Part shown: positions 1,860 through 34,166 of the stretch, piece by piece | Layout of the letters: each line of letters opens with the position of its first letter | Numbering within the stretch: position 1 is the first letter of the stretch | From: Hormoscilla sp. | GTDB lineage: Bacteria; Cyanobacteriota; Cyanobacteriia; Cyanobacteriales; Desertifilaceae | Direction: 5' to 3' | DNA: 35,002 nucleotides | Assembly: GCA_051439505.1 (NCBI GenBank) | Contig: JBFRWI010000125.1 | Coordinates: forward strand, 1-35,002 | Notes under the pieces: generated by a model | What the model was told of the DNA's origin: nothing | What the model saw: the letters and a program-made list of their open reading frames with translations, nothing else | Database searches by the model: none | Translations under genes and position numbers: made by a program

Positions 1860-1951
1860 ACAATCTAACCAGTGTAACAGCTCTGTCCCATCTTACTGAA
1901 TTGTAACTCTACTCAACGACAACCTGTGTATAGAGGAATTTCACCTACCGC

Positions 1952-2115
1952 TGTCATTGCGAGGGGGGATTCCAAACCGAGATGAAAGGAACTCCACTAA
2001 CAGACCCCCCGAAGCAATCTCCCCACCAATAGATCTCGGTTGAGATTGCTTCGGGGGGGGGATGCTAGTGCAAGATGATGATTCTTCGCTTTGGCACCCC
2101 CCCCTCGCAATGACA
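1952..2115. repeat. Nested palindromic element (TGTCATTGCGAG...GAAGCAATCTC/GAGATTGCTTCG...CTCGCAATGACA), copy 1
   Basis: Terminal inverted repeat plus an internal inverted repeat; the same scaffold recurs at 12487-12669. Confidence 0.85.
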
Positions 2116-2209
2116 TGAACAACTTTTTCCTTCAGTCAGTGCCATTCCTGTATAGAGGACAGCCGATTGCGATAAGTTAGAACTACTTTTTATTTTTCTC
2201 GTACTGCCT

Positions 2210-2488
2210 ATGCCTCCGAAATGGCCTCGTCAACCCGATCGCCGGGACCCGGACTACCGACGTTTGGACGATCGGATGAATTTTGCCTTCCATGTAGCTG
2301 TTTTTGCCGCTAGCAATTCTGGTTTGTGGTTTTTCCACGTTTTGCGGCCCCAAACCCTGCTGTGGGTACAGTGGTTTACCCTCAGCTGGCTATTGCTGCT
2401 GTTGGGTCATGGGGTCTATGTTTTCGCGATCGCCTCCTACTCGGAAGCATCATCTGCGGACAGTCCGCCCAAATCTTCTTCAGGATAA
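2210..2488 (+). CDS. 2TM-domain small membrane protein (conserved cyanobacterial)
   Basis: MPPKWPRQPDRRDPDYRRLDDRMNFAFHVAVF followed by two TM helices. Confidence 0.8.
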   Translation: MPPKWPRQPDRRDPDYRRLDDRMNFAFHVAVFAASNSGLWFFHVLRPQTLLWVQWFTLSWLLLLLGHGVYVFAIASYSEASSADSPPKSSSG

Positions 2489-2500
2489 AGGTTAAGTAAG

Positions 2501-2530
2501 AAACCCGGTTTTTGGTGCGAAACCGGGTTT
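2501..2530. terminator. Hairpin between convergent genes (AAACCCGGTTT/AAACCGGGTTT repeat family)
   Basis: Perfect 11-bp inverted repeat; a related hairpin lies at 6845-6877. Confidence 0.6.
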
Positions 2531-2542
2531 TGTGGGTGATTT

Positions 2543-3139
2543 TTAAGCCAATAATTCATCTACAGCTACATTAAAACCAAGCAGGACTTTCTGAGTGCTG
2601 ACAACCTCACCAGAAACAAACACCAGTCGTGATTCGGAAGTATTCACCATTATCAAACGATTGTCAGGATACACTAACCATACTTCCTGACCACCCGACT
2701 GTAAATACTCTTGAGATTTGGCCATGACTTCAACGGCAAAATCTGTAGGTGAAATTATTTCAGCGATCAAAGGAAAACTCTGAGGAAGCACTGCCTCATT
2801 GCCAAACTGGGCCAGCAGATCCGGTGTAAGGTAGGCAACATCAGGCTTACGTCCTCTGCCAATAGTACGACAGGGCGCATCTGTATAAACTTCTCCTCCT
2901 TGTTTATTAGAGTCCTTGTAATTTTTCCAGTACGATCCTAACCTTAACTGAATCTGACCGTGCTTGAGTGTCATGCCATTTTTCTCCAGTAATTGTCCAT
3001 CCACCCACTCCATATCTGGGGGGTTGCGCATATAGTCATCTAGGGTGATAATTGGTGATTCTTTATCTGGGGGGTTGCGCATATAGTCATCTAGGGTGAT
3101 GACTTCCGATTCTTCTGAAACAATTGTAGAAGCTACCAT
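2543..3139 (-). CDS. Uma2 family endonuclease with a duplicated N-terminal segment
   Basis: EWVDGQL, RKPDVAY, PLIAEIISP and EVWLVYP motifs; ITLDDYMRNPPD occurs twice. Confidence 0.9.
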   Translation of the reverse strand: MVASTIVSEESEVITLDDYMRNPPDKESPIITLDDYMRNPPDMEWVDGQLLEKNGMTLKHGQIQLRLGSYWKNYKDSNKQGGEVYTDAPCRTIGRGRKPDVAYLTPDLLAQFGNEAVLPQSFPLIAEIISPTDFAVEVMAKSQEYLQSGGQEVWLVYPDNRLIMVNTSESRLVFVSGEVVSTQKVLLGFNVAVDELLA

Positions 3140-3272
3140 TGCTATCTATTCTCCTTGGTAGTATAATCCTTAGAAGGACTAAAGTCCTTACTACAAACTG
3201 GCAGTCCTGTGCTACATTGGGATAAGGGGCGGATTTGCTCCTATAATTAGTATATCATACTAGATCGCTATT

Positions 3273-3581
3273 ATGGCTAACTGGAACACGACAGAAGCAA
3301 TTGAATCACTTGCTGCCGAAATTGGCGACAAAGTCTACATAGACATCGCTAAATGGCATCTATACTTAAATGATGCCCATTTACACACAGTCCTGGCCGA
3401 GCAATTCTATCCCATGCTTGCCGATAATAATCTACAAGAAGGCCAGGTGCTACAAATACTGCAAAATATCCCTGTTAAGCTAGGCGGCGGCAAACGGGAA
3501 ATCCCTCTAGCTGAACTCATTCCCATGCAGGCACAAATGAATCTCATGGATCTACTCGAAGAGTTTCAGCGCCAAATGTAG
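3273..3581 (+). CDS. DUF3181 family protein
   Basis: IESLAAEIGDKVYIDIAKWHLYL and IPVKLGGGK resemble this conserved cyanobacterial/plastid family. Confidence 0.8.
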   Translation: MANWNTTEAIESLAAEIGDKVYIDIAKWHLYLNDAHLHTVLAEQFYPMLADNNLQEGQVLQILQNIPVKLGGGKREIPLAELIPMQAQMNLMDLLEEFQRQM

Positions 3582-3709
3582 CTAATGCTAATGGCTAATG
3601 ATTATTGCGATTAGCCATTAGCAATTGATTGGTGGTCTTGCACCAGTTGGGAAAAAAATACCACACCCACTTCTGGTGGGCGGTGCCAGAATGGTGGGCG
3701 GTGCCCACC

Positions 3710-9051: not shown

Positions 9052-12000
9052 TCAACTAAGCTTAGCTAGCCGCGTCCCGCATTTGTAACAGAAATTGGAA
9101 GCCGCTGGGTTCTTTGTCCCGCAATTAGTACAGAAAACATGTTCTGGTACGGAATCAAAGGGCGGATCTTCTGGGGAGTCGCTGCCCCCCGATCGCATCC
9201 CATTCCCGGCGTGAACGGTATCCTTAATAACCGTCTCTGCTGCTGCATGGGAGTCAATTGGAGTTTTCTGATGCTGGGGTTCAACTACAGGTGATTTGGG
9301 TGCAGCGGTTTGCAGCTTGTAAGCCTCGATCGTCTCCAGAATAATCGTTTTCTCGCGCTTATATTCCGGGCTATCTTCACCCCCCATTTTGGACAAATCT
9401 TCCTTCCGCCGATCCAGATATTGGGTCAATAGATCGAACAACTCTTGCTTTTGGGAGTCTGTTTCCGCCTCATTCAGTTTCAGAGTCACTTGTCGCAAGA
9501 TCTCTTCCCGATCGTCCCGACAGGCCAAGACTTCCAAAACTTGGGCTGCTTCCTCCCAACTGGAGGCGAGGTCTACATTTTCGGTATCTACAGCAGTTTG
9601 GCGAGTATAGCGGATGGCATTTTCCTTAGTCGCGCGATTTTCTTCCTGGCGCAAGATTCCCAAGGCCCTTGCTTGCACCACCAGCTTAAATACTTGGGGG
9701 TCTTCGGGAAACAGGTCCCAGAAAGGCGGTTCTTTTTGCATGTGAACGGGAATGGGCAGGTCTCGGCTTTCTCCCCGCAGCTTGGCCCGTTTCGCGACAA
9801 TACTCTCCCCCTTCCAATCCTGATAAGAGTACCGCAGGTCTTTCATGCCATCAATACAGCGCAGGGAAAAACCGCCGATTTCTTGGACGAAGACCATCCG
9901 GTGACGTTCGAGATTTCCCAAAGGTTTAATGGCATCTTCATTGCCAATAAATTCCTCCAGCTTGGACAGCATTCTTTTGGCTGCCGGGTCGCTAGTGTTC
10001 CGCCCTCCCAACAGGGCCACGTTAGTATTGATCGCTGGGGTAAAGCCCGCATCTTTGCCGGTGAGAACGGCCTTGTTCATCAAAATCAGGGGTTTAGACC
10101 GATTATAGGCGATGCGAATGTTGTTGACAACTTCTGCATCGTCGTTCAAGACTTTGAACAGCCGATCGCAGGCAGCCAGTTCTTGTTTCAACTGACTGCC
10201 CTCGGGGGCCTCCTCCACCACTTTCTTTGCCCGTTCAAAAATTATTTCCCGCAAGTCTTCATCTTGCACGTCCGGTACTTCTGTCAAGTCGAACAGTTGC
10301 ATTACCTCATCCGCAGCGCGGGTTTCTTTCCACAAGGGACTCGCCTCTTTGAGTATATCTTCCGACATGGTGCTGCAAATGGAATCCATGCCCAGTTCGT
10401 AGCGCGTTTTACTCCCCTCGGAAGCCCCGGCCAACTGTTCGATTAAATCTTGATACAAACCATTCAACTCCTGACGGACATAGAGTTTAATGCCATTGAT
10501 CTGCAAGGCATCCGCGCTGTCAGCTTGTCGATCGGCCCTTTGCTTGAAGTAATCCCGATTTTGAATTAATTTTTGATTGAAGCGACTGAACCGACGTTCT
10601 AAAACTGTCAGGTGTTCTTGCAGGCGGGCGATCGCCTCCAGTCCTAGGGCCCTTGCTTTCCGCTGAATTATCGCCACCAAACTCCCCTCCAACCCGTTGA
10701 GGGCCGCGTCGCAATATTCTTCCATTTTCGCTTGTTTGGAGATGCCGAATTTATCTTTGAACTCGTTAAGGGAGGCGATCGCATCTTTATACTCCTGCTG
10801 GCGCTTATTTTCATTTGGTTCCCAGACCTTTTCTTGTTCCCGGCGAAACTTTTCCGCTGCATCCTCGAAAATTTGCCGCACCGTGACGATGAAGCTATCG
10901 GCGAACTTCGGTCCTTGGGTGCGGTCTGCCAACAGGCGGTAAAATTCCGTTTCTAGGGCTTTGCGACCCCGCACAATCAGGCGATCGCGATTATTATACA
11001 TCTTCTTGAGGTAATCCCCGTGCAATCGTTCGTCCGAACTTATTTCCCGGAAATGATCTGCCCGATATGCATCTACTGTTGGTTTGAGATACTCGTCCAA
11101 AAACCGCATAATCTTGCCCCGTTCCGACCCCAACATTTTCACCCCTTGCTGGGTGCATTGCAGCCAATTATCCGTGGCAATTTCATTGCGGATGGTGGTC
11201 ATCCACTCAGTAATCACTGCCAAATAGGAACGGTCTTCCGCCGCCGACAGATCTGCAATCATTTCGGCATCCGTCAGGCGCATGCGCTTGAGCATATCCG
11301 ATCGCACCAATTCTAACATCTGGGGCGGCAACTCCACCGATTCATTCAGCCACCAATGCACCAAGTCCTTGGCCAGACGGTTAGATAGAGAAGCCCGGAT
11401 CTGGGCGATCGGGATTTCGATGGTCGCCAGTCCAAAGCTCATAAAATTCTTAGGATAGCCCCGTCCCCCGGGGTCTGCTGCTGCCCAAGCACTTTTAATA
11501 TTATCGCGAATCGATCGCTTGTGGGGAGCAAAATCGGAAGTCAAGTCCAAAAACATATTTTGGGCAATCATTTCCCGCAGTTGGTCCAGTTGAAAATCAC
11601 TTTCATCATTTTTCGTCCCCACCAGATAAGTAAAATCAAAGGGAGGCAAATTACTCCGCACCTCATCTGCCAGACCATTGCTATACTGGGCTACATACTC
11701 CGTTCTGTAGTCCGAATAATAGCTCAACTCCATCATCGCCGCATAGCCATTTGCCAGCACCCGATCGCCCACACTTATGCCTGCAAACGCCTGGGGCATG
11801 GGCACGATCGCCGTTACCAAAGGGCTAGCTTCCCCCCGCACCCAATTGCGGATACAGTAACCGATATCGATCAGCATCCCGCTACCCGTCCCTCCCGACA
11901 AGGAACCCGTCACGAACACGTTCAAGCTGCCGCTGTTGACCTTAATTCCGTAGCGATCGAGTAGATAATTTTCCCGACCCTTCACCCGGTTACTAGCTGC

Positions 12001-12417
12001 TTGAAATTTCTTTTGCAGTTCGTGGTAATTGCAGAAAAATGCAAACCGACCGCAGGCGCGAATTTGACCCGCACCCGCTTCCAAAGAAGTTATATTCCGT
12101 TCCAACTCTCGGGGAAACCAGTTGTCTATCCAAGGATAATTTTCCATATTCGACACCATCTCCCGGACTTCTTTGCCACTCACCCGAGCCCAATATTTTT
12201 CATTATCTTTGAACTCCGAACCGCTAGCTTCGGGATTGGTAATTTTGTAACCCTTATCCGTATCGATGACCAGAAAACTAACAATCGGAAAATTCTTCAG
12301 ACTGCCATAGGTTTCCTCCACTAAGCGACGCACCCGGGACAGCACTTCCGTTCCCGTGCCCCCAATGCCCACCAGGATCGTGGGCACCATTGTTTTTTCT
12401 TCTACTTGCGGTGGCAT
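9052..12417 (-). CDS. Tubulin-like (Tubulin_2/FtsZ-like) domain protein with long helical region and C-terminal zinc ribbon
   Basis: VGIGGTG, GAGQIRACGR and GSLSGGTGSG GTPase motifs; C-terminal CTNCG...FCYKCG. ATG 12417 is preferred over 12462. Confidence 0.85.
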   Translation of the reverse strand: MPPQVEEKTMVPTILVGIGGTGTEVLSRVRRLVEETYGSLKNFPIVSFLVIDTDKGYKITNPEASGSEFKDNEKYWARVSGKEVREMVSNMENYPWIDNWFPRELERNITSLEAGAGQIRACGRFAFFCNYHELQKKFQAASNRVKGRENYLLDRYGIKVNSGSLNVFVTGSLSGGTGSGMLIDIGYCIRNWVRGEASPLVTAIVPMPQAFAGISVGDRVLANGYAAMMELSYYSDYRTEYVAQYSNGLADEVRSNLPPFDFTYLVGTKNDESDFQLDQLREMIAQNMFLDLTSDFAPHKRSIRDNIKSAWAAADPGGRGYPKNFMSFGLATIEIPIAQIRASLSNRLAKDLVHWWLNESVELPPQMLELVRSDMLKRMRLTDAEMIADLSAAEDRSYLAVITEWMTTIRNEIATDNWLQCTQQGVKMLGSERGKIMRFLDEYLKPTVDAYRADHFREISSDERLHGDYLKKMYNNRDRLIVRGRKALETEFYRLLADRTQGPKFADSFIVTVRQIFEDAAEKFRREQEKVWEPNENKRQQEYKDAIASLNEFKDKFGISKQAKMEEYCDAALNGLEGSLVAIIQRKARALGLEAIARLQEHLTVLERRFSRFNQKLIQNRDYFKQRADRQADSADALQINGIKLYVRQELNGLYQDLIEQLAGASEGSKTRYELGMDSICSTMSEDILKEASPLWKETRAADEVMQLFDLTEVPDVQDEDLREIIFERAKKVVEEAPEGSQLKQELAACDRLFKVLNDDAEVVNNIRIAYNRSKPLILMNKAVLTGKDAGFTPAINTNVALLGGRNTSDPAAKRMLSKLEEFIGNEDAIKPLGNLERHRMVFVQEIGGFSLRCIDGMKDLRYSYQDWKGESIVAKRAKLRGESRDLPIPVHMQKEPPFWDLFPEDPQVFKLVVQARALGILRQEENRATKENAIRYTRQTAVDTENVDLASSWEEAAQVLEVLACRDDREEILRQVTLKLNEAETDSQKQELFDLLTQYLDRRKEDLSKMGGEDSPEYKREKTIILETIEAYKLQTAAPKSPVVEPQHQKTPIDSHAAAETVIKDTVHAGNGMRSGGSDSPEDPPFDSVPEHVFCTNCGTKNPAASNFCYKCGTRLAKLS

Positions 12418-12486
12418 AATCTTTCTCCTTGTACTTCCTCTTATTATACTCCAAACGGTCATAAACTGAGCTTTTTAGGGCAGTAA

Positions 12487-12669
12487 TGTCATTGCGAGGG
12501 GGGGGGGTGCAATTGAGAGTACTTGTGTCGTAGGAGTAACTCCCCCCGCTAGCGCAGCGGCCCGACGTAGGAGGGCTAGCAATCTCCTGGCTCGTGGAGA
12601 TTGCTTCGGGGGGGGATCCTTGAGTTGTTCCGGACAATAATGGTCATGGATACCCCCCTCGCAATGACA
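12487..12669. repeat. Nested palindromic element, copy 2
   Basis: TGTCATTGCGAGGGGG...AGCAATCTCC/GGAGATTGCTTCGGGGG...CCCCCTCGCAATGACA. Confidence 0.85.
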
Positions 12670-12714
12670 AATTCAGTGGCAAAAAGCACAAGTCGATCCT
12701 TTCGGGAGTATAGC

Positions 12715-13620
12715 CTAGCATTGGGATATGAATGGTATCCCGCCTGCCCAACTCCAAATTATACAGGGCGTGACTGCTGTCCAAAATAAAGCATTCCCTA
12801 ATGCTAATTTCCCCGAAACCGTCCAGTGCCTCTGCATGATTCCTTGCAAAATCCAGCGGTCTATAGGCATAATCAGCATCCACATCAAAGCTATCCATGC
12901 ACAGCCTAGCCAAAAGATAATCCATCTTATGTTACTATTAAATAACGAGAAAAATCTGTTTGTAAATAACAATTCCAGATTATCTACATCCTCGGACAAG
13001 TATACTCCTCTTGTCGCCAATGCTGCAGTTGCCAACGCCGGGGCTTCTCCTCCTATGACCACCGAATTAATCTTCACTTTCCGGAAAGCCGCATCGGCAA
13101 TTATCCCCGGGCTAACCGGTGCTTCCCCATCAGTAACTAGGAGTAATTCTCGACAGCGGCCTGGAATATTGCTCAGGGCATTAGTTGCCTCTTCAATGGC
13201 TAAGTCGAGATTGGTGGTACTGGCAACAATTTGTTGGGGGAGATTGGGATTTCGCAAAGCTTGGGTTAATTCAGCCTTCACCTGTTGGCTGTCGCTGTTA
13301 AAACCATTAGTTAAGGGTTTCACGACACCGCCAAAGCCAAATACCTGCACCTGGTTGGGTTGGCGCAGGATGTCAGGAGAATTTTTCTCCAGATAGGCTG
13401 ACACTGCTTGCACTTCTTGTGCCATAATCGTACCCGGAGCATTGAAGCTCCCAGCACCGTAGGTGCTGCTACTTAAATCTAAGGCGATCGCCACTGCGAC
13501 TGGGGGTCTGCCAAAACCCAACAGCCCGAACAGTAAAGCTGCCAATAAGCAAGCACCCAAGATCATTAACGGAATTTGAAACAGTGGATATAGCCACAAA
13601 GGGCGACGATAATTATTCAC
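12715..13620 (-). CDS. Membrane-anchored von Willebrand factor A domain protein
   Basis: MIDAS motif ALDLSSST, TTNL and LLVTDG; one N-terminal and two C-terminal TM helices. Confidence 0.85.
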   Translation of the reverse strand: MNNYRRPLWLYPLFQIPLMILGACLLAALLFGLLGFGRPPVAVAIALDLSSSTYGAGSFNAPGTIMAQEVQAVSAYLEKNSPDILRQPNQVQVFGFGGVVKPLTNGFNSDSQQVKAELTQALRNPNLPQQIVASTTNLDLAIEEATNALSNIPGRCRELLLVTDGEAPVSPGIIADAAFRKVKINSVVIGGEAPALATAALATRGVYLSEDVDNLELLFTNRFFSLFNSNIRWIIFWLGCAWIALMWMLIMPIDRWILQGIMQRHWTVSGKLALGNALFWTAVTPCIIWSWAGGIPFISQC

Positions 13621-13626
13621 TGGTTT

Positions 13627-13711
13627 GAGAATTGAGCAATTGTTAATTGAGCAATTGTTAATTGAGAAAAGCCATTAGCCATTAGCCATTAGCCATTCTC
13701 AATTAGCCATT
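13627..13711. repeat. Short tandemly repeated sequences (STRR-like heptamers)
   Basis: About four GCCATTA units plus AATTGAGCAATTGTT repeats. Confidence 0.7.
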
Positions 13712-15333
13712 TACGGGATCGGGTCGAATTGATAGTTTGACCCCACAGGTCCGGAGGTACCGGGAACAGCTTGAACCAAAGGAACTTCCTCAAAAATATT
13801 AAAATCAGTGTTGCTACTAATGGGAAGACCTCGGTTCAGGAGTCGAGACGCCCCAGAACGACTGGGTTTGGAGGTAACGGCATCGGCGAGGACTTTGGTA
13901 GCATCATAGGCAGTAGCAGTACGCCAGCTAACACGTCCTTTCCAACTCTCTAGGGCTTTAGCGGCGAAGGGATCCCCAGGCTGATAACTCCAGGGAACTG
14001 CCAGTACCAGGCCCTCAATGGCATTTCCTCCTTCTATCAGGATAGTAGGATTATATAGTTCATCTCCTCCCAGCAGGGTCATGACTGGCCATCGATATGC
14101 ATTGGCCTGGGCCAGGGCCACTGCCTGAGAAACCTTATTTTTACTCAATGCCAAAAATCCCACATTCGCCCCTCTTCTCTTGGCCCGGGCAACTTCTGTC
14201 GCCGGATCGAAGTCAGCCCCCAGCACATCCACTGTACTCACTACTCTACCATCGATCGCCGCGATCGCCTGCACCAATTCCTGCTGCAACTGCTGGCTGT
14301 AGGGACTATCGGAGTTATAGAAAACCACAGCGGCGGGGGTAAAATACCTGTCCTTGGCATATTCAGCCAGAGTCTTGCCCACAGCTTGGAGATAACTGCC
14401 CAGCAATTCATTAGATTTTTCGGACGGCCCGATCGTCTTGAGAGTAGACCGACCCTCCCCGCTGGAGGTAACGCTAGTAGTCAGGGGCGATAGCACGGCC
14501 AAGTCATTAGCATTATATATTTTCAGGGCCTGTTGGCTGCCCGGATCGATGCCATGTCCCAACACCCCCAGCACATTGGCATTCACCAAGTCTTGGGAGA
14601 TCGAGGCCGCGCGACCCGGTGCAATATCATTGACAACCACTACTTCTAACAGGCGTCCGACTGAGGCCGAGGGAGACTGGTTATATTCTGCTTGATATTG
14701 GGCGACCCCCCGCAGCACTTCTTTCGCCGAGTTCGCACTCGCAGTAATAGGAACCACTACTGCTATGGTCAGAGGATTGCCTGCTTTTCTGGCCATGGCA
14801 TTCTGGAGATAAATTTTGCTTTCCGGATCGTTGGGCCTGGCGTCCGATGCTTGTTGATAGAGACTTTGGGCCCGACTCCACTGCTGCCTGGCAAATTCTG
14901 ATGCCCCATCTAACTTCAATTGAGTTTCATCCAACAGAATTTTCTCCCCCTGACTGAACAGTTCTTTATTCCTAGCTTTTTCACTGACAAACCCAGCGGA
15001 ATTAATTATGACTTCGTTATCGATACTGTTTAGCATCTTAACCGCTAGCAAAGAAATAGCTCCCCCTGCTAGGATAATCAGCACTGCTACTATGGCGATC
15101 GGGCCCATATTCAGTTTTTGGGTAGCTTTAGATACGAAAGTCTTTGGAACTATATTCCGATGCTTTCCTTTTGGTTCCACTGCCTCCCTGGGCAGACCGC
15201 AGATAGTGCAATCAGGACCAGACATTTCCTCGGGTTCGTGGGGACCAGAACAATAGGGGTATTGTAACCCATCTTTCGGTCGCCCATCGCAGATCCAAGT
15301 CGTTCTCGGGTTCATCACATTTCCCCTCAGCAT
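13711..15333 (-). CDS. Membrane protein with Cys/His-rich N-terminus, TM helix, TPR-like segment and LivK-like periplasmic-binding domain
   Basis: WICDG..YPYC..H...CTICG, a TM helix, PNDPESKIYLQNA, IAVVVPI and SWRTATAYDAT. The start may be ATG 15315. Confidence 0.8.
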   Translation of the reverse strand: MLRGNVMNPRTTWICDGRPKDGLQYPYCSGPHEPEEMSGPDCTICGLPREAVEPKGKHRNIVPKTFVSKATQKLNMGPIAIVAVLIILAGGAISLLAVKMLNSIDNEVIINSAGFVSEKARNKELFSQGEKILLDETQLKLDGASEFARQQWSRAQSLYQQASDARPNDPESKIYLQNAMARKAGNPLTIAVVVPITASANSAKEVLRGVAQYQAEYNQSPSASVGRLLEVVVVNDIAPGRAASISQDLVNANVLGVLGHGIDPGSQQALKIYNANDLAVLSPLTTSVTSSGEGRSTLKTIGPSEKSNELLGSYLQAVGKTLAEYAKDRYFTPAAVVFYNSDSPYSQQLQQELVQAIAAIDGRVVSTVDVLGADFDPATEVARAKRRGANVGFLALSKNKVSQAVALAQANAYRWPVMTLLGGDELYNPTILIEGGNAIEGLVLAVPWSYQPGDPFAAKALESWKGRVSWRTATAYDATKVLADAVTSKPSRSGASRLLNRGLPISSNTDFNIFEEVPLVQAVPGTSGPVGSNYQFDPIP

Positions 15334-24255: not shown

Positions 24256-25395
24256 TTAGTTATGCAAAACAATGTCGATCGCCCGATCGATCAAATGAAC
24301 AGCATCCTCAGAGTAGTGATAGGTTTTCGTCTTAAATTTCATATCCTCCATTTGTTCGGGCTGTTTAGAAGGGAAATGCCCGTACTTGTCTTGATACAGT
24401 TGCAAGGTCAGGCGACCGATTTTCGTCCTCTGTCCTGTAGTTACTTGAATGCCCCGTTCTTTGATTCGCTTGGCGACGGAGACGGTTGCCGTGGTTGCAC
24501 TCTTTGCTGTCGGCTTTTTCTTCAAGCTGTTAAATGTTTGGGTCAGTTCGGAGACTGTTGAGATCAATTGCGTTTGTAACTGAGTATATCGTCTAGCGGG
24601 TTTGTCGGTAGCCACGGCAATCTCTAAAGCCCTGGTCTGTCCGACTGCAATAAATGTACTGCTGGCGCGAGTCATGGTAGTATAGAGTAACTGGCGAGTC
24701 AGCATGTGGCGATTACTAAGCAGTAGGGGCATAATCACATAGGGAAATTCCGAACCTTGGGACTTGTGGCAGGTCAGACAGAATGAATGCATAATTTGTT
24801 CCAGTTCGGACTGTTTATAGGAAACGATCGCGCCCTCCTGAAATTCTACTCTTACCTGTTTATTTTCCGGGTCAACGAACACAACCTTGCCAGTTTCTCC
24901 ATTCATCACGGTGGGTGCGATGTCGTAGCGATTTTTGAGTTGAATCACCCGGTCATTCACGCGGTAGACGACCTCATTATACTCTACCTCTGTGCTGTCG
25001 GGCAGTCGAGGATTAAAAATGGGCTGAAGCAGCTGATTGAGATTGCTAACGCCACAGATACCTTTCTTTTGAGGTGCTAACACCATCACAGATGCAGTTA
25101 AATCGACTTCCGTTGCTTTCATGGCAACTGCCAATTCCACAATTGCTCGGGCTGTGGCTTCCAGTGTCGGGGTTTCCCACATGGCGCAATCTCCCACATC
25201 CATCCACTGTTTTGCCTGCTTAAACTCGTGCAGTTTTGGTATTTTACCTCTGTTAACATCTTCTGCTGCATAGATAATCGGGCTTTCATCTCGCTGTCGA
25301 TAGATAGTCTCCAATCGGGTTGTGGGCACCATTTCTGAGATTAGCAAATCTCGCAGCACCATCCCGGGCCCAACGCTGGGTAATTGGTCCGAGTG
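24256..25395 (-). pseudogene. RecD2-like SF1B helicase, C-terminal half only
   Basis: The frame opens at SDQLPSVGPGMVLRDL (motif III), then IYRQ, NGETG, TCHKSQGSEF and LLYTTMTRA. Walker A/B are missing and the IS607 right end abuts it. Confidence 0.85.
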
Positions 25396-25493
25396 CTGTA
25401 TTAAACCCTCACAAAGCTAATATTAGCCCTGCGCAAGTATAACATCGGCATCAGAGATGGTAATAACGCCATCTCTAACATCGAAGGCTACAG
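25396..25493 (-). ncRNA. Putative omegaRNA scaffold of copy A; the guide would be flank 25395 downward (CACTCGGACCAATTAC...)
   Basis: CTGTA...TACAG closing stem plus AGAGATGG/CCATCTCT and GCTAA/TTAGC hairpins; covaries with copy B. Confidence 0.65.
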
Positions 25494-25975
25494 CCTGCAA
25501 TGCTCTCAACATGATGTTAAGAGCGCCTACCCAATCTCTCGTAGCGGAGGGGTCCCGGAGCGTGCCTTATGGCCACAAGCCGGGCATTTATGAATTTTAG
25601 AGCCACCTAAATTCCTATGAATGTGGCCACACTTAGGGCAGGTTTTACTTGTGTACGCTTCATTACAACGAACCACCAGTACCCCTTTCCTTTTTGCTGC
25701 TTGTTCTAGATGTGAAGCAAACCGGCTCATGGCCCAAGTAAGCATATTCCTGACAGACTTCCGATTGATCTTTCTATTGGCTTTGACAACCATTTGAGAA
25801 GTTTCGTAAGTGGGAAAAAATATTAACTTATAGCTATTGACTAGCAGACTAGCAGCCTTTCGATGCAGGTCATCCACCAGTGAATGAATTTTGAATCTGA
25901 GCCGGTCGATTGCTTTGTTCAATTTGTAGCGCAGTCGCTTGTTTGTTTTTCCGCTGGCTTTCACTTTTCTTCCAA

Positions 25976-28374
25976 GTTAAACTAAGCCAGGGTGTTACCA
26001 CCCCGACTCGTCTTCAGAACCGGACGTGAGACTTTCACCTCATCCGGCTCCTCAGCAATGCCATCCTTGTCATGGATACGGCAACTACCATCATTGGCAG
26101 TCTTTACGTCGTGGCAATGTTTGTGTAACAGTTGCAGGTTGTCCCACCGGTCCTTACCACCTAATGATAGCGGTTTGATATGGTCTACTTCCCAACTGTC
26201 ACCGTTTCTGAATGTTAATCCGCATTGTTGGCATATGCCCTTTTGCCTCTTGAGTAGTTTAGCTACCCGGTTACTTAGCTCAGGGTTCTTGCCTAGTCTT
26301 GTGCTCCAATATGTGAGGTTCCCGTCGTATGGGCTTGCTTTTCCTTTTACTTTTACATGTCTCACTATCTCTGTACTTGCGTGTAGAGATAGTTCAATAT
26401 TTCCATGTGCATCCCCGAACTCTGTCGATGCTCTGAATCGCCATTGTCCATCCTGACCTATTGACCAGTATTTCTTGGCTATCCATTGTGCCGACTTATT
26501 GGGGTGCCTCCTTTTTGCCCAATTCCACAGGATTCTCCATAGGTAATGATCCAACTCGGAGAATGTCTCCTTGCTTACCCCAGTTCTGAAGTAGTTTGCC
26601 CAACCTCGTATGATCGGGTTGAGTTTGCCGATCAGTGCCGCTTGTGGGGCTGTTTTATAACTGGTTACAATTGCGGCTAACCTTTCTTTGTGTTTACCTA
26701 TGGATTTGTTGCTGGGTTTGATGAGGGTTTTGAATCCTAGGGGCTCCCCCTGCGTATTCTTTCCAGTTCGGTACTTGCCTACCTCAAATTGCCTGACGGT
26801 AAATCCCAGGAAGTCAAAGCCAGGGTTTTCACCACTCAGGGTGTGGGTAGTGTGAGTCTTTTCCGGTTTCAGTTCTAATCCGACGTCCCCTAACCATTCT
26901 GCCACGACTGTCTGCGCTTTCTCAATTATGTCGCGGTTCTCATGCAGGATCACAAAGTCGTCGGCGTACCTAACTACTGTCAGGGCTTTCCTTTTATCCC
27001 TTGCTTTCCCTGCTATATCCTTGACTCTTTCTTCTAGACCGTGTAGGGCAATGTTTGCCAATAGTGGCGATATTACTCCCCCTTGTGGGGTTCCCTTATC
27101 GGTGTAATGAAATTGTCCTGCATCAATCACGCCAGCTTTTAGCCAGGCGCGGATCTGTCTCCGAAAGATTGGTGAGGTATTCAGTTTTTTGAGCAGCGCC
27201 AAGTGGTCAATCCTATCAAAGCATTTGGCAATGTCTGCATCTAAGACCCATTTGGATTTCTGTTTGATGCTGTCGAATATTGCCGCTATTGCGTCGTGGC
27301 ATCCTCGTCCCGGTCTGAAACCATATGAGTTGGGTTCCATATAGGCTTCCCATTCGGGCTCTAGCGCAAGTTTGACCAACCCTTGAAGTGCGCGGTCGTA
27401 CATTATGGGGATTCCTAATGGACGTTTTTCGTCTCTCCCTGGTTTGGGTATCCACACGCGCCGTGCGGGCCTTGCCTTGTTTGAGATTCTTAACTGTCCT
27501 ACCAGTTCTAGACGTTGCTTGGTTGTGAGGGATTTGACCCCGTCCACACCAGCAGTCTTTTTGCCTTGGTTTTCCTGTGTTACCCGTCGTACCGCTAAAC
27601 ATTTGGCTGACCAAGATTTGGTCAGTAACCTCTGAAGCTTGCGGACTGTCCGCTTATCACCACGTTCTGCCGCTCTGTAAATTCGCTTTTGCAGCTTGAA
27701 GACCTTCCGCTCTAGCTTGTGCCAGGGGATTGTCTTCCATTCATACATCGGTTTTTCTGCCGTGTTCATAACGTTTGTACTGCTACTTACAACTTCACAA
27801 TTGACATTACCGTGAGGGCGTCAGCGTATCCTACCTATTATAGATAGGCGTTTGCTTCTCCTCTCAATCCTTCCCGGTCATGACCTGCCTAATGGAAGCA
27901 GAGGTTGCGCCTTTGGTGGCTACTCTATTTATCGACCTTAATAGAGAGCACATGACCGGGTTACTTCGTTCCTACAGATGATTGGTTGTAACTTTAGATG
28001 GATTCCTTACGCCGGGTTTATTGTCGATGCTTACTGGTCGGAACTCAATCCGCCAGCGACCTATATCCTTTCCCTTTTGGGCCAGTGTATCAGCCTTATT
28101 TCACTGGTTCTTGATTACGACGCTGCAAATCTTTGCTTTATGCTCATCATGGCTACTTGCTCGACGTTGACCGGTAAAGGCTACCGATCAGAGCGCCTTT
28201 CACTCCCGCTTTACGGATTGATGCCATCGCTACCGTAGGGAATGTGCTGTCACTCCTGCATCTGGAGGGGTGGACTTTCACCACCATCTTCTGTAAGTTG
28301 TCAGGGCTAATGTCACCCTGCTAGCTGTCCCCTATTTGACATGTGTCATCTAGTTTAAGCTAAACGAATCGCAC
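25976..28374 (-). mobile_element. Group II intron (2399 nt), probably IIB/chloroplast-like class
   Basis: 5' GTGCGATTCG; domain V GAGCCGGATGAGGTGAAAGTCTCACGTCCGGTTC (about 26017-26050); 3' TTAGTTTAAC. EBS1 (28042-28047) is complementary to IBS1 AACTCA. Confidence 0.93.
25982..27769 (-). CDS. ltrA: Group II intron reverse transcriptase/maturase with HNH endonuclease
   Basis: GKKTAGVDG, RPLGIP, SYGFRPGR, DADIAKCFD, GTPQGGVISPLLANI, YADD, GWANYF and DHIKP..GG....NLQLLH..CH. Confidence 0.96.
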   Translation of the reverse strand: MNTAEKPMYEWKTIPWHKLERKVFKLQKRIYRAAERGDKRTVRKLQRLLTKSWSAKCLAVRRVTQENQGKKTAGVDGVKSLTTKQRLELVGQLRISNKARPARRVWIPKPGRDEKRPLGIPIMYDRALQGLVKLALEPEWEAYMEPNSYGFRPGRGCHDAIAAIFDSIKQKSKWVLDADIAKCFDRIDHLALLKKLNTSPIFRRQIRAWLKAGVIDAGQFHYTDKGTPQGGVISPLLANIALHGLEERVKDIAGKARDKRKALTVVRYADDFVILHENRDIIEKAQTVVAEWLGDVGLELKPEKTHTTHTLSGENPGFDFLGFTVRQFEVGKYRTGKNTQGEPLGFKTLIKPSNKSIGKHKERLAAIVTSYKTAPQAALIGKLNPIIRGWANYFRTGVSKETFSELDHYLWRILWNWAKRRHPNKSAQWIAKKYWSIGQDGQWRFRASTEFGDAHGNIELSLHASTEIVRHVKVKGKASPYDGNLTYWSTRLGKNPELSNRVAKLLKRQKGICQQCGLTFRNGDSWEVDHIKPLSLGGKDRWDNLQLLHKHCHDVKTANDGSCRIHDKDGIAEEPDEVKVSRPVLKTSRGGNTLA

Positions 28375-28999
28375 TGAGTTTGTCAAGATGCAGGCACAGC
28401 CTTGTCAGCCGCCCGATGTCTCCCTTGCCAATCTCTAAGATGTTTTCACCGTCATAACCGGTCAAGAAAGTGCGGTTTCCAGGGTCGAGCGCAATCACCT
28501 TATCAGAACCCGTACTTACTACCGGTACATATGAGGGAAAGCAAGCAAACCATTGCCCGCGCTGGTACAGTAATTCAGTACCGTAAACGCATTTTTCTGG
28601 CAACTCATAACCTTTAGCTATAGCAAATTTCAGTTCGCCGACCTTTTTGGAAAACCAAGTGCCATTTCTGTACGCATCATTCTTAAACTGAATAGCCTGA
28701 GACTTACTTCTACAGGATTTGAATCGCAGCAAAACCTTGCCACCATTAGCTTTGCGAGATTGTCTACTAGCACTTTGGGCCTCACAAACTGCCTCTTGTC
28801 TGGTTTTCCCTAGGCACTTTGTCCATGAGTTTTTATGTTCACTTTGCAACTGCTGAATATACTGATCTAAAGACCGACCTTCTGGCAGTGCTTTGCCGCT
28901 ATTATAAAACTCAATGCACTGATTGTAAACCCACCGGTAAGCCGCCAGCCATTGTTTCCAGATAGCGTGTAATTCGGGCTCGGGAAATAGCGGGATTTT

Positions 29000-29500
29000 T
29001 TGGACACTGTTAGGGGGAACATTCTTACTCTTCTTGAAGAGATTGCGCCCATATTTTTTCGACGTGTTTTTTTCTGTTTCACCAATAACACCAAGAACTG
29101 AGCATGTTGATGCTGAACATCTTATTTGAAACAAGCTCTTATTCTGAACTGCGCTACCGGTTACTGAAAACCAAGAGTTTGATTGCATTGCTGCATAGAT
29201 ATTTAGCCAATTTTCGTCATTGTCTACAATGTTTTCTGTAGGCAATGACAAACCGCTAGATATCCTGCTCGACAATTCATTCCAGAATGGGGACAAATTA
29301 CCATCGTCTAAAGCTAATCCGGGCTGTAATCTCAAAAAGGAATTACGTTCCTGGATACTATCTGCGCAGGTCTTCAAATTATTGCTCAAAATCCCGACAT
29401 AGCGCTCCTGCGTCGCGCACTGCGTATAAGGAATTACTTGAGACACGTGCATAGTAAATAGTTCTAGTTGACGACTAGACACCCTGCACTTCTCTTTCAC
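29000..29500 (-). pseudogene. tnpA: IS607 tnpA serine recombinase relic (copy A), in a frame overlapping tnpB
   Basis: RTIYYARVSS is still readable, but at least 8 in-frame stops are present and the HTH part is missing; boundaries approximate. Confidence 0.7.
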
Positions 29501-29737
29501 TTTTCAATTTATTGAGGTTATAATGTTCGTGTATTCTTGTTGCGAGCAGTCAATGCTCGTTTCTTTTTCTAATTTATAATTAGAAAAAGTTCTGTCGAAA
29601 AGCGTGATAATACAGAGACTCTTATAATGTTTTGCTACCGACAAAAACGAATCGGTACTGAATTATTGTCAAAATCTGAGAGATGTGTAGGTTTTCGGGC
29701 ACTTAGTTACAAGTCTAGCACTTAGGGGGCCTCGGGA

Positions 29738-29790
29738 GCCCGAACCCTAAAGGGTCCGGCTATGCAAACAAAGCCCGCCTAGGCGGGCTA
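29738..29790. repeat. REP-like double hairpin, related copy at 34091-34142
   Basis: CCGAACCCTAAAGGGTCCGGCTA...AACAAAGCCCGCCT.GCGGGCTA in both copies. Confidence 0.75.
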
Positions 29791-30056: not shown

Positions 30057-31094
30057 ATGAGTGGTTCAAAAGTAATTTCTGTTGCCGCTGGCGCAGCACC
30101 TGCTACCGGTGCTGCTGTGTTGGCGGCGATCGCCCCAGCAGTAGGGGTCATCATGGCTACCGGTGCGGTGGTGGGGGCGGCGGGAACGATCGCCCATTTG
30201 GGGGTGAAAGCGGTGCAATCTTACCAGGACCGCCTGCGCCGGGAACGGGAGGCTGCTGAACGACGGGAACGGGATATTCAGCAGCGCATTGCCCAGGTGA
30301 GGGCCCGGGTTCGTTCTAGTTCTGGTCCCCCAAGGGTTTCTGTTAATTTGCCCCCACAAACTAATTCTTCGGCAATTGGATCTCAATCTTCAGATGATAC
30401 TATTAAGGCGGCCCGTCGGGACGAGCAACGGCGGGTTGGCGAACTCAGATCTAGACTTCCTCAGGTGCGATCGGAGTATGAGGCTTTAATCTCTCAAGAC
30501 CTCTTAGATGCCCAAACGGTACGGGATGCTTTGCAACAAACTGATGTTGCTCTCAATGCTGGTAATCTTTCTCAGGCCCAGGCCCATTTACAAGCCCTGG
30601 ATGATGCTCGCATTCAAGTGATGCAGCAGCTCAAAACTGACTGGCTGGCCCAAATTGATTACCTCCACGAACGTCTTCAGCTATTGCGCGATCGCCTCCC
30701 TGCTTCGGTGAGCGATCGTTTGCAAAGGGCCATTGACGATGCTGGCAGTAACTGGCAGCAACTTACCGATGGGGACCTACAGGTTCTGCATCAGGAAATT
30801 AGCGAATTTGAGGCCCAAGCCGATCGCATTTGGTCTGCTGCGGAGAATTTGGTCAATTCTTGGACTGATGTGGGCTATGTGGCCCGAATTGCCGGCATAG
30901 AACAGGGAGATGTGGCGATCGAAGTGGAAACCCATGAGGGGGTGAATACCCAGATGCGGGTGCAGTTCGACGGTCAACAAATAGATCTGGAAGGCCCCCC
31001 CGAAGAGTCTAATTCTTGTGCCGATCGCACCAGAGAAGCGATGCAAATTTTTCAAGAACAGGGCTATTATTTGGAGTTGCGACCAAGTACCTAG
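30057..31094 (+). CDS. Hypothetical coiled-coil protein with Gly/Ala-rich hydrophobic N-terminus; 3' end probably cut by element B
   Basis: 345-aa ORF containing HIP1 sites; the last codons (LRPST*) lie inside the conserved IS left end. Confidence 0.75.
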   Translation: MSGSKVISVAAGAAPATGAAVLAAIAPAVGVIMATGAVVGAAGTIAHLGVKAVQSYQDRLRREREAAERRERDIQQRIAQVRARVRSSSGPPRVSVNLPPQTNSSAIGSQSSDDTIKAARRDEQRRVGELRSRLPQVRSEYEALISQDLLDAQTVRDALQQTDVALNAGNLSQAQAHLQALDDARIQVMQQLKTDWLAQIDYLHERLQLLRDRLPASVSDRLQRAIDDAGSNWQQLTDGDLQVLHQEISEFEAQADRIWSAAENLVNSWTDVGYVARIAGIEQGDVAIEVETHEGVNTQMRVQFDGQQIDLEGPPEESNSCADRTREAMQIFQEQGYYLELRPST

Positions 31095-31296
31095 AAACCT
31101 ACACATCTCTCATATTTGAGGTCAACTTAAGTACGTTCGGGGCAGTTCTATGTAATTAAAGTATTATTTATTTACGTACAGTTACGGTTGATTGTCTGAG
31201 TTATATTGTATGTACAGTTATAAACACGAAGTTAATGAAGCTAATGCAATGCAGCAAAAAACGAGCATTTACTACTCTGACCGTCCTCAATTATAA

Positions 31297-31896
31297 ATGA
31301 AGCATGAATATTAACTCCCAGCCCCGGCAGCTAACCTTTTGGGAGTATATCCAGAGTCCCAAAGAAGGTGCCGAAGAGAAGAGAAAACCACATCGTACCG
31401 AACGCCAGGTGGACAGCGCCGTTTCCTCAAAAGGGAGATTGAAAGATTTGCAGGCATCGAGTTGCCAACTACAACTGTTTGTGATGGAAGGGTCTCAAGT
31501 TATTCCCAACGTGACGATCTTGAGCGACAACCTGAATACTTGCGCCTCCACAACGAGGGCGCAGAATTTATTTCAGAAATTGTCGTCCGGCTCAATTTTA
31601 GACGGCGAAAATTTAAGTCCATTTTGGAACGAATTATCAAGCAGGATATCCAGCGGCTTGTCGTTGCCCACCGCGACAGACTCTGTAGATTGGGATGGGA
31701 ACTGGTTGAGTGGTATTGCTTATACAATGCAGTCCAACTCGTGGTTCAAAATGTTCAGCAGCTCAGTCGGAAACAAAAGCTTGTTCAGGATATGTTGTCC
31801 AGCCTCCACGGTTTCAGTTGTCGGCTCTGCGGTTTGCGAAAGTACAGAAAAAAAGAAGGCTCTCCAGTACGGGAAGAATCCGTTACGACAAAGTAA
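31297..31896 (+). pseudogene. tnpA: IS607 tnpA (MerR-type HTH + serine recombinase), degenerate
   Basis: MKHEY*LPAPAANLLGV...YRTPGGQRRF...CDGRVSSYSQRDDLERQ...LNFRR...VAHRDRLCR...FSCRLCGLRKY. TAA at 31312-31314; YARV->DGRV and GSG->VVR. Confidence 0.85.
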
Positions 31897-33079
31897 TAAG
31901 CCAAAACCAAACAGCGTACTTAAGATTCCTCTTTTTCCAGATCGAGAGCAGCATCTGATTTGGAAACAGTGGCTAGCTGCTTATCGCTGGGTTTATAATC
32001 AGTGTGTTGAGTTTTACAATCAGGGTCGGTCCCTGGCTCCTAAGCAGTCGTTAGATCAGTACATACAGCAGTTGCAAAGTTTACCCTTAAACTCATGGAC
32101 GAAGTGCTTGGGTAACACCAGACAAGAAGCTGTTTGTGAAGCACTTTCTGCAAGTCGCCAATCCCGCAAAACTAATGGAGGTAAGGATAAGCTGCGTTTC
32201 CGCTCTTGTCAAAATAAATCCCAAGCTATACAGTTCAATCCCGGAGCTTATCGGAACGGAAAATGGTTTTCCACTAAAGTAAAAGGCACAACATTTGCGG
32301 TGGCAAAAGGGCATGAATTACCAATGAACTGTGAGTATGGAACCAAGCTTGTTTATCAACACGGGCAATGGTTCGGATGCTTCCCCCAACATTTACCAAT
32401 AACTGAAACTGGTTCCGAGCGGGTGATAGCGCTCGATCCAGGCAATCGGACTTTTCTGACTGGCTATGATGGCGAAAATGTTTTAGAGATTGGCAAGGGA
32501 GATATCGGGCGGCTGACGAGGCTGTGCCTGCACCTAGACAAACTCATCGGCAGGAAAGTCAAAGCTAGTGGAAAAGTAAACAAACGACTGCGGTACAAAT
32601 TGAACAAGGCAATTGCTCGGGGAAGATTCAAGATTCGCTCACTGGTGGATGACCTGCATCGCAAAGCAGCTAGTCTACTCGTTAATAGCTATAAGCTGAT
32701 ATTTCTACCTACTTACCAGACTTCGCAAATGGTTGTTAAAGCCAATCGCAAGATTAACCGTAGGTCTGTCAGAAATATGCTGACTTGGGCAATGGGGCGG
32801 TTTGCTTCTCATCTAGAACAGACTGCTAAACGTAAAGGAGTGCTCATAGTGCGCTGCAATGAAGCATACACTAGCAAAACTTGCCCCCAATGCGGTCACG
32901 TCCACAAGAAACTTGGTGGGTCTAAAGTCCACAAATGTCCTAATTGCGGTCACTCTGCCCCGCGAGATTGGGTAGGCGCTCTTAATATTATGTTGAGAGC
33001 TTTGCAGGCTGTCGCCTTCGATGTTAGAGATGGCGTTATCACCATGTCTGATGCCGATGTTGTACTTGCACAAGGTTAA
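31304..33079 (+). CDS. tnpB: RNA-guided endonuclease TnpB (591 aa, Fanzor-like RuvC motifs, long N-terminal extension)
   Basis: KIPLFP...WLAAYRWVYN, IALDPG (RuvC-I), CNEAYTSKTCPQCG...CPNCG and RDWVGALNI (RuvC-III). Confidence 0.9.
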   Translation: MNINSQPRQLTFWEYIQSPKEGAEEKRKPHRTERQVDSAVSSKGRLKDLQASSCQLQLFVMEGSQVIPNVTILSDNLNTCASTTRAQNLFQKLSSGSILDGENLSPFWNELSSRISSGLSLPTATDSVDWDGNWLSGIAYTMQSNSWFKMFSSSVGNKSLFRICCPASTVSVVGSAVCESTEKKKALQYGKNPLRQSNKPKPNSVLKIPLFPDREQHLIWKQWLAAYRWVYNQCVEFYNQGRSLAPKQSLDQYIQQLQSLPLNSWTKCLGNTRQEAVCEALSASRQSRKTNGGKDKLRFRSCQNKSQAIQFNPGAYRNGKWFSTKVKGTTFAVAKGHELPMNCEYGTKLVYQHGQWFGCFPQHLPITETGSERVIALDPGNRTFLTGYDGENVLEIGKGDIGRLTRLCLHLDKLIGRKVKASGKVNKRLRYKLNKAIARGRFKIRSLVDDLHRKAASLLVNSYKLIFLPTYQTSQMVVKANRKINRRSVRNMLTWAMGRFASHLEQTAKRKGVLIVRCNEAYTSKTCPQCGHVHKKLGGSKVHKCPNCGHSAPRDWVGALNIMLRALQAVAFDVRDGVITMSDADVVLAQG

Positions 33080-33106
33080 TATTAGCTTTGTGAGGGTTAA
33101 AGACAG
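33009..33106 (+). ncRNA. Putative omegaRNA scaffold of copy B; the guide would be flank 33107 onward (GTGTGGGTGCTGAATTCC...)
   Basis: CTGTC...GACAG closing stem and CAAGGTTAA/TTAGCTTTG hairpin; overlaps the tnpB 3' end. Confidence 0.65.
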
Positions 33107-33487
33107 GTGTGGGTGCTGAATTCCGAGACGATCTCCTATACGGGGTTTCCTATATAAACAGATTTCCTCTATACTGGTAGAAAAGCAGTGGGTTGGTACC
33201 GGCGAACGATGGTCCTGGGCCCGGGAAAATGCCCCGGTTGATTCCAGAAAGGAGAAATTTCGGGAAATATTTGGGAATAGGGTTGACATTATTGGGGGAT
33301 AGGATGCTAAAATCAATTTGCGGATGAAAAATTTTGGGCGATCGGGGGTATAATAATGAATGTGGTGGCAGAGGCGCGTTAACGATCGCTTGCCACCAGA
33401 TTTGCTCTTGCCAAAAGGGGATGCCCCGGGTGTAAAATGGGAAATCATCCACCTTTTTCCAGTCACCAAATCACCGGAGGTGTCACC

Positions 33488-34060: not shown

Positions 34061-34166
34061 ATTTGGTACTCGGCCTCGCCGCCGAACGCCGCCGAACCCT
34101 AAAGGGTCCGGCTACATGAACAAAGCCCGCCTGCGCGGGCTATATACATGTATAGGGCTATGCACC

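Follow-up and report, generated by a model that had tools for sequence, protein, structure and literature searches.

A non-autonomous cyanobacterial IS607 element encoding a pro-Fanzor TnpB with an N-terminal region apparently overprinted on tnpA

The element and its TnpB

The window analysed here (the whole 35,002-nt stretch, on contig C125 of its own genome G000, a Hormoscilla assembly; we take Hormoscilla to be a cyanobacterium) carries, with bacterial genes around it, an IS607 element in which a decayed tnpA and an uninterrupted tnpB occupy the same DNA. The features of the locus are as follows.

30057..31076, + strand: interrupted host gene; the left end of the element breaks it at codon 340
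31075..31117, + strand: IS607 left end, with AG (31075-31076) as its probable core dinucleotide and 31077 as the first base of the inner end
31297..31896, + strand: decayed IS607 tnpA, MerR-type HTH plus serine resolvase (PF00239, NF033518)
31304..33079, + strand: pro-Fanzor tnpB, 591 aa, its ATG 7 nt downstream of the tnpA ATG and in the +1 frame
31304..31612, + strand: TnpB residues 1-103, overprinted leader, predicted to be disordered (pLDDT <50); start at M1 or M61
31613..31903, + strand: TnpB residues 104-200, overprinted N-terminal domain, with P106-F-W, L119-S-L-P-T, N145-S-W-F and a basic stretch
32435..32443, + strand: RuvC-I, D378-P-G (motif reading)
32708..32710, + strand: P469, opposite the canonical RuvC-II Glu (pairwise alignment)
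32861..32863, + strand: relocated catalytic E520 (motif and PDB sequence match)
32882..32947, + strand: C4 zinc finger, C527, C530, C545 and C548 (motif reading)
32966..32968, + strand: RuvC-III D555, in RDWVGALN, where Val replaces a usually conserved Asn
32975..33109, + strand: predicted omega-RNA scaffold, overlapping the 3' end of tnpB; 5' limit tentative
33107..33109, + strand: GTG replacing the terminal CAC of the family and breaking the pair of G33008

Translation of 31304-33079 (+) gives 591 uninterrupted codons, the product of which matches Pfam PF07282 (E 2e-19) and NCBIfam NF040570 (130.9 bits; cut-off 100). Its active site is rearranged, as a preliminary description of this DNA had reported: RuvC-I reads DPG, the segment L465-I-F-L-P469-T-Y (beginning at 32696) has P469 at the position of the canonical Glu, E520 in C518-N-E520-A-Y-T-S-K-T-C527 lies at a spacing of six residues from the first zinc-finger Cys, and RuvC-III is R554-D555-W-V-G-A-L-N. 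In a pairwise alignment with the TnpB of an H. pylori plasmid IS607 (L158), the canonical RuvC-II Glu of the latter (CLENL) falls on P469, and no Glu faces E520. Among the 150 best 50%-cluster relatives of the window TnpB, 144 have DPG and 127 match the pattern E-x2-T-[ST]-x2-C. The D378/E520/D555 triad and all four zinc cysteines are intact in the window protein, which, out of 106 conserved columns, has a residue other than the commonest one in 22 (N557V and H497M among them). Variation of the motifs was seen elsewhere: L043-L068 and many viral loci have SKTV, SKTA or SKTH for SKTC, i.e. the first zinc-finger Cys is gone and the relocated Glu kept, and two clade members (L134 and L144) have DCG in place of DPG, with the +1 frame of tnpA open.

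Pro-Fanzors were described by Yoon et al. (bioRxiv 10.1101/2023.08.09.552727) as IS607-associated, mostly from Cyanobacteriota, and marked by DPG together with a Glu placed six residues ahead of the zinc finger. The preliminary description had placed the window TnpB in the IS607-associated clade nearest to Fanzors, and motifs, the IS607 TnpA, tree position and both sequence and structure searches agree with that placement. The top PDB sequence match is 9B0L, a mimivirus Fanzor2 (E 2.7e-22). In a quick IQ-TREE of 68 rows (127 extracted TnpBs cut at 70% identity; midpoint root, no bootstrap, and no named Fanzor1, Fanzor2 or IS200/IS605 references) the protein falls in a 46-row group (SH-aLRT 99) together with three GVMAG rows, and 22 other IS607 TnpBs fall outside it. 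The closest loci come from Hormoscilla genomes, and a match at E 1e-30 is present in 28 of the 401 genomes from the window's phylum. On these sequence features the window TnpB is a member of the already published pro-Fanzor clade. It is not the "unusually long" protein first described, as relatives' frames containing both RuvC-I and RuvC-III span 466-631 aa from the first Met. The body of TnpB is under purifying selection, with omega of 0.06-0.14 for the window protein against five relatives and of 0.03-0.14 in 14 of 15 pairs; this constraint, together with the intact triad, makes nuclease activity of the window protein plausible.

Further features were noted in the window. A second copy of the element (25393-29712, -), with 13 stops in tnpA and the +1 frame open, is interrupted by a 2400-nt group II intron (28374-25975) containing an RT-maturase-HNH ORF and lies upstream of a RecD-like ORF; three genomes of the genus show the corresponding empty site. 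In several copies the frame is shifted by a short, repeat-like insert immediately ahead of RuvC-III (window about 25550-25570; L006-L011 and L021), present there through either repeated insertion or inheritance; the genome contains 24 occurrences of the core of this insert. Consecutive genes for a tubulin-like protein (PF13809, 1136 aa, with a zinc ribbon), a vWA protein and a periplasmic-binding-like protein occupy 9052-15333 (-). A lone Rfam CRISPR-DR28 match at 34119-34142, with a similar palindrome near 29770, is probably a dispersed repeat and not an array.

Two reading frames over tnpA

In the window copy the tnpA ATG (31297) is followed by a TAA at codon 6 (31312-31314), the YARVSS motif now reads DGRVSS and further invariant residues are also altered, although the remnant still scores 133.9 bits on NF033518 (cut-off 110). 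tnpB spans all of tnpA, with TnpB codons 1-197 occupying the +1 frame, and this overlap, which the preliminary description did not include, accounts for the length of TnpB. The element had been called non-autonomous; the status is right, whilst the cause is a tnpA mutated in place rather than absent. Judged as an autonomous IS607 element, the copy has a broken tnpA (TAA at codon 6, DGRVSS) and a right end without CAC. The identical tnpA/tnpB layout occurs in copies of the same genome on C174, C35, C213, C1 and C170, of which C170 holds an intact tnpA of the window's subfamily.

The PFW, LSLPT and NSWF motifs of TnpB are +1 readings of tnpA ILERI, LVVAHRD and QLVV, respectively, and W108 is conserved in 110 of 117 aligned rows and W147 in 119 of 120. 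Residues 1-103 are without third-position bias, yet indels in this leader preserve the frame, a pattern suggesting that the frame is kept and the sequence itself weakly constrained. We consider it very likely that the locus is a non-autonomous cyanobacterial IS607 element encoding a pro-Fanzor TnpB, of which the N-terminal ~200 residues are overprinted on tnpA and include a Fanzor2-like domain. One stretch of DNA would then encode TnpA in frame 0 and this part of TnpB in the +1 frame, with translation of TnpB from M1 or M61; in the window copy, where tnpA is dead, selection would have retained the tnpB frame.

To be weighed against this reading is the alternative that the +1 frame is an untranslated shadow of tnpA codon usage, the real TnpB start lying near the end of tnpA in the style of canonical IS607. 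Stops in +1 were counted across the roughly 119 codons of the resolvase core. The 250 loci comprised TnpB-first sets plus the own genome, and TnpA-first sets (single-TnpA queries); 227 had a TnpA match, and the 192 covering the whole core were counted, the others being left out, as 90% DNA clusters. The +1 frame is stop-free in 64 of 69 pro-Fanzor clusters, in none of the 31 IS607 clusters with other TnpBs and in 3 of 34 unclassified clusters, counts that are not independent, the clusters being related to each other, and that are biased toward open frames, most pro-Fanzor loci having been retrieved with the full-length protein. The TnpA-first set holds only four classified pro-Fanzors, and the +1 frame is open in all of them; canonical tnpAs have 2-20 stops in this frame. 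When the window core was recoded synonymously with host codon usage, stops averaged 5.7 and 3 of 3000 draws had none; the pooled codon usage of pro-Fanzors, which makes for a circular control, left 288 of 3000 draws without stops.

Natural controls run both ways, since some copies have lost tnpA and others tnpB. In the dead-tnpA copies L008 and L010 the core of tnpA contains 10 and 4 stops, respectively, and the +1 frame none. Comparison of the two gives omega of 1.12 in the tnpA frame, 0.24 in the tnpB frame and 1.02 in the remaining one; of the 74 changes, 39 fall on third positions of tnpB codons. The window copy compared with L002 gives 0.91 for tnpA and 0.39 for the tnpB frame, and several dead-tnpA pairs have +1 omega of 0.24-0.43. 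The solo tnpAs L179 and L191, whose proteins are 75-78% identical to an overprinted tnpA, are without tnpB downstream and have 10 and 11 stops in +1. Thus the +1 frame remains open after the death of tnpA and closes upon the loss of tnpB. Where both frames are intact, +1 omega is 0.57-1.32, not below that of the nine canonical pairs listed (0.64-1.54), and the window copy against C170 and C174 gives 0.79 and 0.80; from this, constraint on +1 whilst both frames are alive would fall mainly on stops and a few residues. (L179:1477-2100 and L191 are solo tnpAs of the overprinted lineage that stand beside unrelated genes, and may be domesticated recombinases.)

An omega near 1 with tnpA alive is what an untranslated shadow would be expected to give, and the +1 frame of tnpA weakly matches the family profile even in canonical elements. 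Such a shadow is nevertheless very improbable in view of the stops in canonical tnpAs, the open and constrained +1 frame of several dead-tnpA pairs, its closure after tnpB loss, the conservation of W108 and W147, and the superposition of the modelled overprinted segment on a solved Fanzor2 domain (below).

A different route to the same protein would be programmed +1 frameshifting after initiation at tnpA, in place of initiation at the tnpB ATG. In 18 full-length relatives the starts of tnpA and tnpB are separated by 7 or 10 nt, a promoter scan found no consensus promoter, and in the C1 copy of the same genome (about 1930-3600) an indel fuses the tnpA N-terminus in frame with tnpB to give an apparent fusion ORF, all of which could accommodate frameshifting. 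The tnpB ATG is, however, retained in 13 of 13 close copies examined, three of which (L008, L009 and L053) have lost the tnpA ATG with the tnpB frame still open, and the window tnpA itself terminates at codon 6; we accordingly give frameshifting very little credence, and favour translation of the overprinted TnpB from a start of its own.

Element ends, guide RNA and activity of the window copy

Homology among copies starts at 31071-31079, and their common span is about 31074 to 33106. Both junctions of the window element are bridged by DNA contigs, the right one without differences in runs X1 and X3, and an assembly error at either is unlikely, with the proviso that the best runs may derive from the window's own source. 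Left junctions of copies are mostly AG-ended and right ones AC-ended; unlike cores at the two ends of IS607 elements have a precedent (bioRxiv 10.1101/2023.11.20.567912). The continuation of the interrupted host gene was found neither at the right flank nor in the assembly, suggesting an adjacent deletion. No contig skipping the element was seen, and joining the flanks does not reconstitute an empty site; the sequence adjoining the element on the right has no match in four genomes of the genus or elsewhere in the assembly, and the C174 flank likewise has none in these four genomes.

At the right end, a scaffold of 33009-33106 had been proposed, which leaves out three terminal bases kept by the family and lost here. 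The predicted helix consists of six pairs between 33008-33013 and 33102-33107; across 14 closely related rows 83 of 84 cells are paired, the sole broken cell being that of the window copy, and one pair is changed on both sides in 6 of the 14. Fifteen of 16 matched right ends finish CAGCAC, and the window copy has CAG-GTG. The G:C pair so broken is at RNA position -2, by analogy the counterpart of a pair read by RuvC in ApmFz2, and with its 3' end damaged the window copy's own guide RNA is doubtful. Rfam gave no match across the element. The empty-site sequence is GAC for L003, L010 and the second copy in the window, and GAG for L008, from which a GAC-like TAM is predicted.

Judging from TnpB and Fanzor2 biology and from the empty sites, TnpB would most likely bind the omega-RNA from the right end, and D378/E520/D555 would cut dsDNA beside a 5'-GAC-like motif at empty donor sites, so that the element is restored after excision; collateral activity would not be expected, by analogy with PMC10530073. 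Mobilisation in trans by the intact tnpA of C170 is conceivable for the family, and for the window copy is unlikely given the end bases lost.

An opposing interpretation is that the TnpB of this lineage, or at least of the window copy, is no longer a homing nuclease, and is instead a decaying relic or a domesticated RNA-guided binder. The damaged right end, the flanks that fail to rebuild an empty site and the right flank without a match elsewhere in the assembly are consistent with this, as are N557V and other departures near the active site, the frameshifts of many sister copies, and the state of the closest relative, L001 (protein about 96% identical), which carries a stop, is truncated and reads APG for DPG. 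On the other side stand the three catalytic residues and four zinc cysteines, the purifying selection on the TnpB body and the intact C170 tnpA; moreover, copies at different sites with empty-site counterparts indicate that the family has been mobile. We regard the relic or binder as unlikely, though deserving of some weight. Returning to the window protein as a homing nuclease, we think it rather likely to be active if supplied with an intact family guide RNA, and somewhat doubtful that it would be active with its own damaged right end; the window copy is poorly suited to assay in cis.

The N-terminal domain, its origin and known relatives

The structure of ApmFz2 (9B0L) contains an N-terminal domain (residues 53-130) absent from other TnpB structures (Schargel et al., PMC11832414), in which RuvC-R (65-91) touches the RNA pseudoknot via N82 and S83, and a basic thumb is also described; the ApmFz2 E467A mutant is dead (PMC10530073). 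When 9B0L is aligned to a profile of the 150 relatives, the match begins at its residue 57, and its N82-S83-W84 coincides with the family NSW motif, i.e. N145-S146-W147 here. In a template-free AlphaFold model of the window TnpB residues 1-103 are disordered, and confidence is high at 104-125 and 137-164. 9B0L ranks top in Foldseek, and residues 104..571 of the model align with its residues 53..517 (Z 26.2, rmsd 3.1, 418 residues), whereas ISDra2 TnpB, ISFba1 TnpB and Cas12f align only from about residue 200. A profile of the overprinted segment alone matched 99 of the 150 relatives and gave no match in the PDB at E up to 10; a search of the ESM Atlas with residues 60-210 gave a best score of 0.86, under the tool's meaningful level, and a degenerate pattern for the ApmFz2 NSW peptide gave zero matches in viral contigs. 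Homology to the ApmFz2 domain is argued, accordingly, from the full-length alignment and the predicted fold, on which residues 104-200 are likely to be homologous to the Fanzor2 N-terminal domain (RuvC-R and thumb). They would pack on the nuclease as RuvC-R plus thumb, and the NSW motif may, from the contacts in 9B0L, read the guide-RNA pseudoknot.

The match of the overprinted N145-S146 to N82-S83, together with the model alignment, suggests that the "unique" domain of Fanzor2 probably arose from tnpA overprinting. In a FastTree of 85 TnpA cores, those with an open frame come together as a single group of 54 rows (support 94) surrounded by closed ones, and L191 is nested within this group; from this tree we infer that tnpA is the older frame and that +1 was opened once and lost once. 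Among 25 loci with a weak or absent TnpA match, several viral members match no more than the 3' half of the TnpA profile and have a TnpB ORF beginning just upstream of PFW; five of the 25 retain the N-terminal domain without a detectable tnpA. We think it probable that the RNA-contacting N-terminal domain of Fanzor2 was born de novo by overprinting of the IS607 tnpA +1 frame in a pro-Fanzor ancestor, that the nuclease came to require it and that it passed into giant viruses, the cyanobacterial lineage displaying the hand-over, in which tnpA dies, selection switches frame and the domain outlives tnpA.

If this is true, overprinting would explain the origin of a solved functional domain in a genome-editing enzyme family, and coupled coding may link excision and homing in one message. 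To our knowledge, few cases of long same-strand overprinting that yields a folded, conserved product have been documented in bacteria. There are also practical consequences: clones of pro-Fanzors annotated to start downstream of tnpA would lack about 100 structured residues, and filtering by length at 550 aa would exclude full-length pro-Fanzors such as the window TnpB. Yoon et al. clustered candidates of 350-550 aa, and the IS607 TnpB that they assayed had a typical active site (bioRxiv 10.1101/2023.08.09.552727).

Pro-Fanzors are thus already known, and for the overprint we found no published report. This holds for the main text of openly accessible articles; no mention of it was found in passages of PMC10711439, PMC3627910, PMC13565253, PMC10691335, PMC10530073 and PMC10432273.

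Of the known systems, the pro-Fanzors of Yoon et al. (NAR, PMC10711439) share with the window TnpB the DPG, the relocated Glu and an IS607 serine-recombinase TnpA; a long tnpA overlap is not described in the main text of either version, where "frame" has zero occurrences. Canonical IS607 (L158; CboIStron, bioRxiv 10.1101/2023.11.20.567912) shares the TnpA family NF033518, the tnpA-then-tnpB order, insertion at a short core without duplication and an omega-RNA over the right end (predicted here), but differs in a gene overlap of at most about 30 nt, a +1 frame full of stops and the canonical TnpB Glu. The RuvC-II glutamate is likewise relocated in the rearranged TnpB2 / RIIr TnpBs, although these groups are broader and polyphyletic, and the tested member, TvTnpB, is IS605-associated (PMC10530073, PMC10691335). 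The best match in both sequence and structure is ApmFz2 (9B0L, PMC11832414), whose D324/E467/D501 correspond to D378/E520/D555, and which shares with the window TnpB, as modelled here, an N-terminal domain with NSW and a disordered leader, and with its predicted guide RNA a G-C pair at position -2 and a C-G pair at -3. The two proteins are, however, only about 20% identical, the host of the window TnpB is bacterial, and the motif is GGG in ApmFz2 as against the GAC-like one predicted here; the N-terminal domain of the window TnpB is still written on tnpA.
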